Source: Bacilli bacterium (GTDB lineage Bacteria > Bacillota_I > Bacilli_A > RFN20 > CAG-826). From it: 64,000 nucleotides of DNA. A model generated the notes under the pieces. It searched no databases, was not told the origin of the DNA, and worked only from the letters and a program-made list of their open reading frames with translations. The translations under genes were made by a program, and so were the position numbers. Location: contig JAZQOV010000003.1 in assembly GCA_045628045.1 (NCBI GenBank), positions 1-64,000 of the forward strand, written 5' to 3'. Below, in pieces: positions 155-49,244 of this stretch. Numbering within the stretch: position 1 is the first letter of the stretch; each line of letters starts with the position of its first letter.

Positions 155-1213
155 TTATAATTTCATTATCTCTTTAGTAAATTCTTCAAATATTTTTTCT
201 TCTGGAACAGTTTTTATAATCTGTTCTTTTTTAAATATTACCCATTGGCCCTTACCACCTGCACATCCAATGTCTGCACGCTTAGCTTCTCCAGGACCGT
301 TAACTATACAACCCATGACAGCAACTGTTTTATTAATGTGGTGTTCTTCCAAAAATTGAAGAATTTGCTTTGCAAAAGGAACTAAATTTACTTGAGTTCT
401 TCCACATGTTGGACATGAAATTAATGTAGGATAATCATTTCTGATTCCTAAATCTTTTAACAATCTGCGACAAGCTCGAACTTCTTCTTGAGGTTCATCA
501 GAAAGTGAGATGCGAATCGTGTCTCCGATTCCTTCAAGAAGAATAGGAGAAAGACCAGCAGTGGATCTAATAAGTCCAATGTCTTTAGGTCCTGCTTCTG
601 TAATTCCGATATGAAGTGGATATTTAAATTTTTTGCTTGCTAAACGGTACGCTTCAAGAGTTTCTAGTACATGAGAGCCTTTTAAACTTATGACCATGTC
701 ATAAAATCCCATTTTTTCAAGCATTTTGACCATCTTGTCAGCAGACTTGACCAATTCCTTAGCTTTTACAATTTCAGTGCCGTTATTTACGTTTTTATCA
801 ATAGAACCTGAATTGACGCCAATCCTAATAGGAATGTGTTTTTCTTTGCAAAGGTCGACAACTTTCTTAACATTTTCTGCATCGCCAATGTTTCCAGGGT
901 TTAATCTAACAGCATTAACTCCTGAATTAATCGATTCTATTGCAAGTCTATAATCAAAATGAATGTCTGCAATTAAAGGAATTGAAATTTTGCTAACAAT
1001 TTCCTTAATTGCTTTTGCATCGTCCATGTCTAAAACAGAGACACGCATTAAATCTGCGCCTAACAAGGCGCACTCATTGATTTGTTTAACAACTTCATTA
1101 ACTTTTGAAGTCTTAATATTACACATGGATTGAATCAAAACCTTATTAGATCCACCCATTGTTATGTTGCCTATTTTTATTTGTTTAGTTTTGTTTCTAG
1201 GTAAAATTTTCAT
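155..1213 (-). CDS. ispG: (E)-4-hydroxy-3-methylbut-2-enyl-diphosphate synthase
   Basis: QSM, ADIHF, RLNPGNIG, IRIGVNSGS and HIGITEAG motifs; CPTCGR..GCIVNGPGE Fe-S motif. Confidence 0.97.
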   Translation of the reverse strand: MKILPRNKTKQIKIGNITMGGSNKVLIQSMCNIKTSKVNEVVKQINECALLGADLMRVSVLDMDDAKAIKEIVSKISIPLIADIHFDYRLAIESINSGVNAVRLNPGNIGDAENVKKVVDLCKEKHIPIRIGVNSGSIDKNVNNGTEIVKAKELVKSADKMVKMLEKMGFYDMVISLKGSHVLETLEAYRLASKKFKYPLHIGITEAGPKDIGLIRSTAGLSPILLEGIGDTIRISLSDEPQEEVRACRRLLKDLGIRNDYPTLISCPTCGRTQVNLVPFAKQILQFLEEHHINKTVAVMGCIVNGPGEAKRADIGCAGGKGQWVIFKKEQIIKTVPEEKIFEEFTKEIMKL

Positions 1214-1219
1214 ACTAAG

Positions 1220-1228
1220 ATTATAACA
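1220..1228 (-). promoter_or_regulatory. Extended -10 promoter (TGtTATAAT) 6 nt before the ispG ATG; probable leaderless mRNA
   Basis: Minus strand reads TGT-TATAAT-CTTAGT-ATG with no SD. Confidence 0.6.
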
Positions 1229-1302
1229 AAGATAAAATATCTTGTAGATATATTTTAACTAATGTGATATTATTTTTCTCGCAAAAGCAAAGGAGAAAAC
1301 CT

Positions 1303-1455
1303 ATGCCAAGAGAAAATATTACACTTAAGTGCACAGTTTGCGGTGAAGAAAATTACATCACCAACAAAAATAAAAAAGAACATCCGGACAGAATGGAAAC
1401 AAAGAAATACTGCTGGAAGTGCAAAAAACACACTATGCACAAGGAGAAAAAGTAA
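1303..1455 (+). CDS. rpmG: 50S ribosomal protein L33 (zinc-ribbon, C+ type)
   Basis: [36 protein letters not shown] places the start at ATG 1303, not the longer track ORF. Confidence 0.97.
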
Positions 1456-1475
1456 GGATTAATCCTTATTTTTTT
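1454..1475 (+). terminator. Short intrinsic terminator after rpmG
   Basis: AAGGA-TTAA-TCCTT followed by a T tract. Confidence 0.45.
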
Positions 1476-1481
1476 ATATAA

Positions 1482-44514: not shown

Positions 44515-44781
44515 TTATTTTTTAATCTCTTGAATCTTTTCGTCATTCATATATGCATTAAAGACTTCTTCTGCTTCTGCATATTCTTCATCATCTTCAA
44601 TTTCTTCAAGAGCTCCATCCTTTTCATTAACAGAGAAAACAAGAATGTTATCTTCATCATCTTTCTCATAGAGAAAAACATATTGTTTTTTGCGTTGTTC
44701 TGATTCGTAAGTGAACAAAATTTTCATGACTTTTTCTTCACCAGAATCAGTCGTAATAATCATTTCATCATCAAGTATCAT
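44515..44781 (-). CDS. DUF1292 family protein (YrzB-like)
   Basis: Acidic protein with ILFTY..K.YV and LEEIEDDEEY..EEVFN; downstream of ruvX. Confidence 0.85.
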   Translation of the reverse strand: MILDDEMIITTDSGEEKVMKILFTYESEQRKKQYVFLYEKDDEDNILVFSVNEKDGALEEIEDDEEYAEAEEVFNAYMNDEKIQEIKK

Positions 44782-45209
44782 TTCTTTTCTCCAAATTTTT
44801 CTAAATATCTTTCTAAAATGACAACTGCTGCCATTTCATCGATAATTTCTTTTCGTTTCTCGTAGCTTAATCCAGTTACTTTTAACTTTTCGTCAGCCTC
44901 GATTGTTGAATAACTTTCATCAATCATTTCGATGTGAAGTTCTGGATTAGATTTTATTAAATCATCTCTAAAACGAAGACAACTTTGAGCATGTGGGGAA
45001 ACGTCTCCTGAAGAATATAAAGGCATTCCTAACGCAATAGTTTTAATGCCTTCTTTTTTACAAAGTTCAAGAACATGTTCTCTTGCCTTTTTAAAGTTGC
45101 CAGGCTCAAATCTAAAAGTCTCAACGCCATGTGCTGCGATTCTTAAAGAATCGGTTTCAGCAATTCCGATAGTTGTAGTACCTAAATCTAAACCGAGAAT
45201 TTTATCCAT
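44778..45209 (-). CDS. ruvX: YqgF/RuvX pre-16S rRNA nuclease
   Basis: ILGLDLG..IGIA, GMP, DESYST and ID..AA..IL motifs. Confidence 0.93.
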   Translation of the reverse strand: MDKILGLDLGTTTIGIAETDSLRIAAHGVETFRFEPGNFKKAREHVLELCKKEGIKTIALGMPLYSSGDVSPHAQSCLRFRDDLIKSNPELHIEMIDESYSTIEADEKLKVTGLSYEKRKEIIDEMAAVVILERYLEKFGEKK

Positions 45210-47809: not shown

Positions 47810-47816
47810 TTTTTGG

Positions 47817-47977
47817 CCTCCTAAACAAAATAAAAAAGTATCAATTAGGAACGAGTTAATCGCGGTACCATCCTAATTCAATACTTTGTATTGCACTTCA
47901 TTAATTTGTCCTTAACGCAGAACTACGTCAACTTTCATTGACTCCAAAGGAGTAGCATTACGTTCCTTTATGGGAGT
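47817..47977 (-). ncRNA. T-box riboswitch (Ala, GCU specifier) with ultra-short Stem I; probably translational
   Basis: T-box AAUUAGGA-UGGUACC-GCG..CGU-UCCUAAUU; Stem II GUCAA/UUGAC; Stem IIA/B GUUCU-GCGUUA-AGGAC; Stem III CAAUAC/GUAUUG; TATAAT at 47984-47989. Confidence 0.88.
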
Positions 47978-48072
47978 TCTATAATTATACACTGAATTCA
48001 AATTCAGTAAACAAATTTTAATAGCAATTTATTTTAAATAAGATAAAATAATAAGCAAGGTAGGAAGCAAAA

Positions 48073-48144
48073 ATGATTACTAATTGCATTTCAAAAAATA
48101 GTAAAGTCAATGCTTTTTACTTTGGTTATTTTTACTATAGGTAA
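48073..48144 (+). CDS. Phe/Tyr-rich leader peptide MITNCISKNSKVNAFYFGYFYYR (23 aa)
   Basis: AGGTAGGAAG upstream of the ATG; 7 of 8 consecutive codons are Phe/Tyr; precedes an attenuator and an aromatic-amino-acid-type ABC importer. Confidence 0.75.
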   Translation: MITNCISKNSKVNAFYFGYFYYR

Positions 48145-48251: not shown

Positions 48252-49244
48252 ATGAAGAAAACAAAATTGATCTCACTACTTGCTTTAGCAACTGCTGCGG
48301 CAGGACTTGCTTCATGCGGTAACAAAGCCAAATGGCAAATTGGTATTCTTTTACCAGTCGAACACAATGCGCTTCAATCTTGTGCAGATGGATTCGTTGA
48401 AGGATTAAAAGAAGCTGGACTCAAAGAAGGTACAGATTTCTCCGTCGAATTTAGAAATGCTGCAGGCAAAGATGCTGATTTACAAAACTTTGCAAAGCAA
48501 CTTGTCGCTTCCAAAGATATGACCTTTGGTTTAGGAACAGGTGCATCTCAAGCATTAAAATCTGCATCAATTGACAAAGGATCACTTAATCCGGTTTTAT
48601 TCTCTGCAGTTACTGACCCAGTTGATGCTGGATTAGTTGAAAGCTTAGAAAATGGCAAAGGTTTTGTTACAGGTTCAAGTGATGCTCAACCAATTGCTGA
48701 ACAAATCGCTTTAATTAAAGAATGCCTTCCTGAAGCTGACAAAATTGGAATTATTTACACACAAAGTGAAACAAATTCCATTGTTCAAGCTGACCAAGCT
48801 GAAGCTGCCGCAAAAGCTGCAGGCTTAGAAGTTGTTAGACAAACAGTTACAGGCCCAGGAGACATTAATACTGTCGCTCTAGCTTTAGCTAGTGTTGATG
48901 GAATGGACGCAATTTATGTTCCAACCGACAACAATATTGCAGCAAATATGAATGCTGTTAAGGAAGCAGCAAACTCTAAACATGTTCTTGTTGTTGCAGG
49001 TGAAGAAGGTATGCTTTCTACCGGTGGTCACATCACTCTTTCTATCGATTATAAAGAATTAGGAAAACGTACAGGCGAAGTCGCTGCTCAAATTTTAAGA
49101 GGCGAAAAGAAAGTCTATGAAGTTCCTGTTATTACAATGACAAAAGAAGACTGCAAATTAGTCTATAGTAGCGTAAATCTTGCCGCTTCTGGAATTGTTC
49201 TTCCACAAAGCGTTTTAGATAAATGTGAGGATATGTCTAAATAA
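48252..49244 (+). CDS. ABC substrate-binding lipoprotein, putative Trp/Tyr/Phe importer (ABC_sub_bind, TrpX-like)
   Basis: Lipobox LASC; EHNAL..GF, PVLFSAVTDPV.AGLV, TGSSD, E.NS, YVPTDN and IDY..LG motifs. Confidence 0.88.
   Translation: MKKTKLISLLALATAAAGLASCGNKAKWQIGILLPVEHNALQSCADGFVEGLKEAGLKEGTDFSVEFRNAAGKDADLQNFAKQLVASKDMTFGLGTGASQALKSASIDKGSLNPVLFSAVTDPVDAGLVESLENGKGFVTGSSDAQPIAEQIALIKECLPEADKIGIIYTQSETNSIVQADQAEAAAKAAGLEVVRQTVTGPGDINTVALALASVDGMDAIYVPTDNNIAANMNAVKEAANSKHVLVVAGEEGMLSTGGHITLSIDYKELGKRTGEVAAQILRGEKKVYEVPVITMTKEDCKLVYSSVNLAASGIVLPQSVLDKCEDMSK

Follow-up and report, generated by a model that had tools for sequence, protein, structure and literature searches.

In the textbook T-box switch, the terminator takes its 5' arm from the 3' strands of helices A1 and A2. 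In the ZTP and purine riboswitches, it is the nascent 3' strand that invades a ligand-stabilised helix of the aptamer and in this way completes the terminator.

T-boxes are divided into four classes in the accessible part of PMC10482949. Transcriptional T-boxes generally need a long Stem I, a short Stem I being the mark of the translational ones (PMC7583486); as far as the accessible text of that paper goes, the platform of the long Stem I captures the tRNA before the polymerase reaches the terminator. According to PMC7583486 and PMC10482949, transcriptional T-boxes can hardly do without the elbow platform, whereas for short T-boxes the S-turn and the K-turn are essential; the translational ones depend on Stem II and the K-turn (PMC7583486). 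Glycine T-boxes dispense with Stem II, which the accessible part of PMC7583486 ascribes to their strong G-C codon, and the met leader of Staphylococcus aureus has a short Stem II without the S-turn, yet a full Stem I (PMC7913692, accessible part). The translational model of TBDB was built, according to the accessible portion of its preprint, solely from actinobacterial ileS.

The leader analysed here lies on the minus strand, 5' of alaS, in a stretch of 64 kb (hereafter the window) from a genome of 1.07 Mb that is 96% complete. The same leader was found in uncultured Bacilli MAGs, some of them labelled as coming from gut or faeces. With the Class III leaders—ileS of Nocardia farcinica and Mycobacterium, as described in the accessible part of PMC10482949—it shares a short Stem I without the IDTM, an apical specifier, the Stem IIA/B pseudoknot, Stem III and an antiterminator-like discriminator. 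Class III, however, stands for isoleucine, Actinobacteria and a loop of 5-6 nt, whereas the window leader stands for alanine and Bacilli, the loops in its genus having 9-13 nt. As far as the available descriptions go, Class III also needs a Stem II with the S-turn and a 5-purine string, where the window has a 5-bp hairpin without an S-turn, and has a K-turn at the base of Stem I, the consensus pairs of which are not evident in the window.

The alaS leader of Bacillus subtilis, which is Class I-like, shares with the window, according to the accessible part of PMC4695836, the alaS target, GCU, UGGU, a Stem II without the S-turn, a non-canonical GA motif and transcriptional control, the last being predicted here. 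By the same account it has a long Stem I with an AG bulge, and a canonical terminator to which A1/A2 contribute their 3' strand, whereas in the window the upper Stem I is missing and A1/A2 are retained in the predicted terminator, which consumes Stem III. Class I as such has the IDTM and an A1/A2-strand terminator, the window neither (0.0 kcal/mol for the latter). Judged by its sequence, the leader is thus neither Class I nor Class III. Compared with the ZTP and purine riboswitches, the ligand is a tRNA and the helix predicted to be invaded is the Stem III of a T-box. No short-Stem-I alaS T-box and no Stem III-invading terminator were found in the literature searched, which did not cover the key surveys and so does not establish absence from print.

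The alaS leader and its aptamer

An Infernal match to the T-box model RF00230 was obtained in a local Rfam scan at 47983-47844 (56.6 bits, E 8.9e-12); the score stays below the gathering score of 93 because the upper Stem I is absent, 68 positions of the model being replaced by 8 nt in the leader. Beyond RF00230, the local scan with E up to 10 returned one chance match only. A scan of the whole window at the gathering thresholds missed the alaS T-box, its sole match being the leader of ribosomal protein L21 (RF00559, 42388-42469, minus strand, 41.2 bits, above the cut-off). Standard annotation thus misses these alaS leaders, since they fall below the Rfam cut-off. In folding, the leader surpasses every one of 200 shuffles (z -3.0); it carries a 7-nt UGGN bulge, a cognate specifier followed by a purine, and a Stem III placed between RRRxG—the purine-string motif as defined in the accessible part of PMC7583486—and AA. 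By all features testable here, save the Rfam score, the sequence is that of a T-box. The features are collected in Table 1.

Table 1 Features of the alaS locus, in positions of the window unless a locus is named
Feature	Position	Strand	Basis and remarks
-35-like hexamer TTTACT, predicted	48006..48011	-	consensus match, 16-nt spacer
-10 hexamer TATAAT	47984..47989	-	sequence; predicted start site about 47980-47977
Ultrashort Stem I, 37 nt	47941..47977	-	ACUCC-CAU-AAAGGA, 12-nt apical loop ACGUAAUGCUAC, UCCUUU-GGAGU; parts: helix CUCC/GGAG, 3-nt bulge CAU, helix AAAGGA/UCCUUU
Ala specifier GCU, then conserved purine A	47954..47956	-	apical loop of Stem I
Stem II, 5-bp hairpin, GAAA loop, no S-turn	47928..47941	-	sequence and alignment
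Stem IIA/B pseudoknot (CGU/GCG; GUUCU/AGGAC)	47908..47927	-	alignment
Purine string 5' of Stem III (RRRxG motif, GAAGUG)	47894..47899	-	sequence
Stem III CAAUAC-AAA-GUAUUG	47879..47893	-	3' arm doubles as 5' arm of the predicted terminator
Antiterminator: A1 AAUUAGGA/UCCUAAUU, bulge UGGUACC, A2 GCGA/UCGU	47843..47878	-	alignment
Predicted non-canonical terminator hairpin, 16 bp, AU-rich	47835..47887	-	-15.4 kcal/mol, prediction
Tail GAUAC, imitating the 5' arm of Stem III, which it is predicted to displace	47838..47842	-	folding
U-tract UUUUUUAUUUU (U6AU4), predicted termination site	47827..47837	-	sequence
Shine-Dalgarno AGGAGG of alaS	47817..47822	-	sequence
alaS, alanine-tRNA ligase, 866 aa	45209..47809	-	TIGR00344, 924.9 bits against a cut-off of 457
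ruvX and small conserved hypothetical gene	44515-45209	-	3' of alaS; stop and start codons overlap
Inserted gene of about 390 aa, hydrophobic ends	L007:295-1476; L008:about 310-1476		in two close relatives

To assemble the leaders of the genus, an AlaS protein search that took no account of the leader gave 30 loci including the window, one of them without upstream sequence. The truncated leader is present in all the other 29, two of which carry it one gene further upstream. Pattern matches from genomes and metagenomes added 31 and 9 loci, respectively, so that the set comprises 70 leaders, 41 of them unique, with 22 leaders ending in the tail listed in Table 1 (tail-type) and 19 not of that type, 18 of the latter being complete. 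The truncated Stem I is found in 41/41. For the tRNA-bound (ON) fold, 98.1% of the cells are paired in the 22 tail-type leaders, with 8 two-sided pairs, and 0/500 shuffles reach either value; in a broader set of 29 leaders 99.4% are paired, with 9 two-sided pairs, and again 0/500 shuffles reach the pairing values. It should be noted that the leaders in these shuffle tests are kin and not independent, the 22 tail-type ones being close relatives. A covariance model (R1), unable by its scope to detect unrelated short T-boxes, gave more than 140 bits to members of the genus alone and 87 or less to the others among the matches listed. By its sequence, the aptamer is real and conserved in the genus.

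The original prediction of an alaS T-box with an ultra-short, 37-nt Stem I having no room for the AG-bulge/T-loop platform has been borne out: neither an AG bulge nor a distal T-loop (IDTM) occurs in the 37 nt, the gap in the RF00230 alignment corresponds to the upper Stem I, and TIGR00344 confirms the gene as alaS. In the genus alignments the Stem I helices are 98.9-100% paired, with compensatory changes. The alanine codon GCU reported in the apical loop is found at 47956-47954, and the same position holds an alanine codon in 41/41 leaders, although the searches did not demand it, the patterns fixing the stems of Stem I and leaving the specifier open; it is GCC in 40/41, GCU occurring in the window alone. 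The apical loop has 9-13 nt in 34/41 leaders; in the other 7/41 it has 22-28 nt and includes a small capped hairpin. The latter, with their intermediate Stem I, resemble Class IV (ileS of Actinomyces odontolyticus, in the accessible part of PMC10482949) but differ from it in that all seven carry classical intrinsic terminators.

Concerning the base of Stem I, the consensus G-A pairs of a K-turn are not evident in the window. The first base of the bulge is G, C, A or U across the 41 leaders, and a bulge beginning with GA (28/41) allows a K-turn register (UCC bulge, then GA), the window, with CA, not being among these. The invariant CUCC/GGAG pairing favours a plain 3-nt bulge over that register.

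A full-length Stem I arising from a start site further upstream, which the prediction had named as evidence against itself, was rejected: the CUCC/GGAG helix closes Stem I and leaves no room upstream of it, the upstream DNA is not conserved, and the best -10-like hexamer ends 7 nt 5' of the CUC of Stem I in 39/41 genus leaders, the start site itself being a predicted one. An extended TG accompanies this hexamer in 32 leaders of the set of 41. The -35-like TTTACT is weak taken singly, four such sites having been found against 4.1 expected.

The helices 3' of Stem I, together with the antiterminator-like fold and the match of UGGU to A73, were likewise confirmed. The S-turn is absent from Stem II in 41/41 leaders, which have instead a 5-bp hairpin with a purine-rich loop of 4-7 nt (GAAA in 26, GAAGA in 8, GAUGA in 4, GAAAUAA in 2 and GAGA in 1), three of the five pairs showing compensatory change; U47941 can pair either in Stem II or at the base of Stem I. 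The helix of the Stem IIA/B pseudoknot is 90% paired in the majority register, with compensatory change at two pairs. All six core pairs of A1 are 100% paired, two of them with compensatory change. The UGGU of the bulge (47870-47867) matches the tRNA ACCA: the three tRNA-Ala genes of the genome (GGC, UGC and CGC) all end in ACCA, and the discriminator is therefore A73.

The alaS leader is one of five T-box matches in the genome. The other four, which we take from the sequences of the downstream ORFs to belong to thrS, pheS, ileS and valS, are about 200 nt long and above the RF00230 cut-off, the alaS one being 140 nt, and a genome-wide shortening of T-boxes was thus rejected. Among the matches listed for 37 genomes of the genus, the short ones are those of alaS, save one at a contig start. 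One full-length T-box, located before a pheS-like gene (locus L003, G000:C6:84460-84659, minus strand), is without a classical terminator and has a CAUCCUUUU/AAGGGGAUG hairpin covering the Shine-Dalgarno (SD) sequence, for which the SD-opening calculation did not give the expected switch.

Since their stop and start codons overlap, ruvX and the small gene behind it are probably co-regulated with alaS. On the other side of the leader, divergent from the alaS promoter and upstream of an ABC importer at 48252, stands a short ORF, MITNCISKNSKVNAFYFGYFYYR (48073-48144, plus strand), that contains a Tyr/Phe cluster; behind it come a hairpin and a U-rich tract, and then a TrpX-like substrate-binding protein (NF041285, 248 bits, below the cut-off of 390). 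To judge from its sequence, this region looks like a leader-peptide attenuator.

Termination or SD sequestration as the output of the leader

The original prediction saw no GC hairpin with a U-tract downstream and proposed instead that the strand UCCUAA pairs with UUAGGA at the SD of alaS. With regard to a classical terminator the former statement stands, as the window contains no GC hairpin followed by a U-tract (0 terminator-like sites; 0.0 kcal/mol for the classical terminator segment). It does not extend to the AU-rich hairpin of 16 bp that is predicted at the U-tract: this consists of the 3' arm of Stem III and A1, with the antiterminator at its apex, and ends directly at the U-rich tract. 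Termination within 47827-47837, which had been regarded as contrary to the prediction, is taken here as the more likely output. That this alanine T-box, with its ultrashort Stem I and no S-turn, controls alaS by premature termination via the non-canonical terminator is the reading we consider probable, though far from certain.

In such a switch, the anticodon of tRNA-Ala would pair with GCU or GCC in the apical loop of Stem I, the G-C-rich alanine codon, perhaps aided by the GNRA-like loop of Stem II, replacing the elbow contact. With uncharged tRNA-Ala, ACCA would pair with UGGU, Stem III and the purine string would be locked onto the antiterminator, the GAUAC tail would be left without a partner, and the polymerase would pass the U-tract and transcribe alaS, the readthrough probably extending to ruvX and the small gene. 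With charged tRNA or none, the tail would take the place of the 5' arm in Stem III, a weak helix, and pair with AAAGUAUU, extending A1 into the 16-bp hairpin that ends at U6AU4, and termination would take place near 47830. Because the tail competes for Stem III, the hairpin would be gated by tRNA charging.

The 22 tail-type leaders have lost the classical terminator (0.0 to -3.7 kcal/mol) and kept the U-tract, their tails ending in UAC. The Stem III arms CAAUAC/GUAUUG occur together with the tail in 22/22 of them and in 0/19 of the others, the pairs of Stem III being invariant in the former and of different sequence in the latter. A classical hairpin (-4.0 to -9.4 kcal/mol), formed from the CGUUC strand, precedes the U-tract in 18/18 complete non-tail leaders. 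The U-tract itself, with a median of 8 U in 9 nt, is alike in both kinds. It should be pointed out that 12 of the 19 non-tail leaders (12/41 of the genus set) have an ultrashort Stem I; the combination of an ultrashort Stem I with a terminator therefore exists in the genus independently of the window's own output.

When the leaders are folded to the third U, the long hairpin lies 2.0-4.0 kcal/mol below the ON fold in 22/22 tail-type leaders (-2.6 in the window), a gain that, among the rows listed, needs the A:U pairs with the first three U's and otherwise shrinks to between 0 and -0.5. The window hairpin is stabler than about 93% of the 169 putative terminator hairpins of its genome, and one of its five basal pairs is G-C, as in 31/169 of these. 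The tail helix is 98.9% paired; one-sided changes keep the pairing at 4/8 pairs, no two-sided compensatory change was found among the 22 leaders, and the helix is broken at one pair in 2/22. Swapped in silico among the 20/22 tail-type leaders that could be parsed (the window and L093 being left out), the tails pair with the tail-type Stem III in all 380 swaps, with a median of -3.6; placed on other leaders they reach a median of 0.0 and 4-11% pairing, and shuffled tails are equally good in 46/2000 cases.

Two other partners for the tail were tried and are disfavoured: the T-box bulge, as the tail has its partner upstream of A1 in each of the 20 parsed tail leaders, and the AAGUG linker, which reads AAGCG in L093 with the Stem III pairing kept. 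A search for Rho gave no match above the cut-off in the genome. An RNA run, covering contigs only, contained 5% of the words and left the leader uncovered.

In the subclade of the window, the aptamer could also have been kept while its expression platform decayed or passed to another route, such as pausing or RNase access, the hairpin being then incidental and alaS weakly or not regulated. The loss of the classical terminator, the AU-rich base and small energy margin of the new hairpin, and an invariance of Stem III that could stem from recent common descent are all compatible with this view. It is nevertheless held to be quite unlikely, given that the neighbouring loops and linkers of the tail-type leaders vary while Stem III, tail and U-tract stay fixed, that the pairing of tail and Stem III recurs on another branch (L021/L028), and that analogous tails occur in the families f3 and f7.

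As for SD sequestration, the proposed translational switch would keep initiation blocked as long as uncharged tRNA-Ala is missing, through pairing of UUCCUAA, the 3' strand of A1, to UUAGGAG in the SD region; the tRNA would hold the antisequestrator. The complementarity of UCCUAA to UUAGGA is real, a classical terminator is lacking, a short Stem I is described as characteristic of translational T-boxes (PMC7583486, PMC10482949), and the stretch from the U-tract to the SD is well conserved in the tail-type leaders. The SD helix also beats the antiterminator in 4/22 leaders (L008, L009, L024 and L092), with good helices in L008 (-9.9), L024 (-7.9) and L009 (-7.4). The SD helix of the 22 leaders, examined in a fixed register, shows on the other hand 0 compensatory changes and 80.1% pairing, a value equalled or exceeded by 498/500 shuffles, in contrast to A1 with 100% and 27 two-sided cells in the same leaders; where A1 has changed to AGAGGA/UCCUCU, the SD did not follow. 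Even when no register is imposed, the SD helix falls short of the antiterminator in stability in 18/22 (-6.0 against -9.0 kcal/mol in the window), and the forced sequestered fold of the window (-14.6) lies above the fold retaining A1 (-16.7). Similar SD helices can be forced in 14/18 relatives having a classical terminator (median -4.65 against -5.2), and the CGUUCCU strand of these antiterminators is complementary to an AGGAG-type SD by its consensus. In Class III the sequestrator is more stable than the antisequestrator; in the window the computation gives the opposite, and the output is likely transcriptional.

The arrangement of two close relatives bears on the same point. Between an intact alanine T-box and alaS, which has its own SD, both L007 and L008 carry an inserted gene of about 390 aa; no NCBIfam match was found for the inserted protein (that of L007 was searched). 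A translational switch would there control an unrelated gene, whereas transcriptional output alone would still reach alaS. Of the sequestration proposal, the complementarity thus remains, and the translational reading of the alaS leader, on the modelling presented here, is poorly supported and regarded as unlikely.

Termination at the U-tract could also be joined by some occlusion of the SD in the read-through transcripts. The OFF hairpin does reach the SD region in some leaders (L016, L093), and in 2/22 the energy needed to open the SD is higher by at least 2 kcal/mol in the free state than in the ON state, but the median difference is 0.6 kcal/mol (1.2 against 0.8 in the window), in a calculation with Stem III forced and no validated positive control. 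Another SD-opening calculation gave no difference in any group, the supposed positive controls (four f8 leaders and pheS) being likewise flat. Such a dual output is considered very improbable, and premature termination via the Stem III-invading hairpin remains the preferred reading.

Shortened alaS leaders in related lineages

In the AlaS tree, the combination of tail and Stem III occupies a clade of 17 rows (supports 99/99, one row without upstream sequence) and recurs in L021/L028, which are located among leaders with classical terminators, this second occurrence being due to convergence or transfer. The non-tail leaders include the basal branches of the genus, which suggests a transcriptional ancestry of its leaders. 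Among sister genera, 29 loci were fetched and 25 parsed. Inspected by eye, most have a full-length Stem I with AG bulge and T-loop, many of the full-length ones having a classical terminator, and five are shortened (L189, L202, L204, L208 and L212). Two of these, L202 and L204 of the sister genus g34, have an ultrashort Stem I of their own, built on a 4-bp GGGA/UCCC stem, with a loop nearly identical to the 9-nt loop of the window's genus, L204 with a strong classical terminator.

The family f3 (L116-L127) has a short or ultrashort Stem I in 12/12 leaders, with GCC as the specifier and Stem II, by eye, seemingly absent; in 10/10 parsed leaders its tail, standing before U6, has the purine string and the Stem III 5' arm as pairing partners (median -5.7). 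The family f7 (L128-L154) comprises full-length leaders, 25 of them unique and 24 with the AG-bulge motif. In most of them a GGUAC tail stands before the U-tract at variable spacing and can pair with GUACC of the T-box bulge in 18/25; the pairing is weak (median -1.3, with 521/2500 shuffles as good), and the tail is, by modelling, a candidate for a third terminator design. Four full-length alaS T-boxes of the family f8 (L045, L047, L049 and L052) have 3' ends that look by eye like SD-sequestering hairpins, a look that the ensemble test did not back.

Shortened leaders fall in three supported groups on the AlaS tree, with full-length ones between them. One is the window's genus plus L189 (95); another is a second f1 group (100), which also contains two full-type leaders; the third is f3 (99). 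The tree comprises 56 chosen rows, was obtained by a quick search with SH-aLRT only and leader labels given by eye, and assumes that the leader travels with alaS. Read in this way, it indicates that at least three lineages of the order arrived at a shortened Stem I. The original prediction of an independently minimised alanine T-box in a Bacilli lineage therefore holds, since the three groups are separate, and such minimisation appears recurrent for alanine.

What the case may add to the known T-boxes is an instance from Bacilli with full-length relatives, a graded series of reduction and a predicted Stem III-invading terminator. By analogy with the glycine T-boxes, the strong-codon explanation for the loss of Stem II may be extended to GCC/GCU. 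The published essentials—elbow platform, S-turn and K-turn—run against sufficiently fast tRNA binding by this leader. We give about even chances to the whole view, namely that the leader works without an elbow platform, without an S-turn and probably without a canonical K-turn, its support being the G-C-rich alanine codon and the small, GNRA-capped Stem II, that its new terminator keeps the antiterminator and invades Stem III, and that the order keeps a reduction series reached at least three times, together with several rewired terminators. The leaders of the genus join an ultrashort Stem I and a Stem II without the S-turn to ordinary (12/41) or predicted Stem III-invading (22/41) terminators, and thus offer a natural series of about 140 nt in which to ask if a strong codon can stand in for the elbow contact and if Stem III can serve as a switching helix. 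If this is true, a single order would preserve full-length, capped short and ultrashort forms of Stem I, with or without Stem II.
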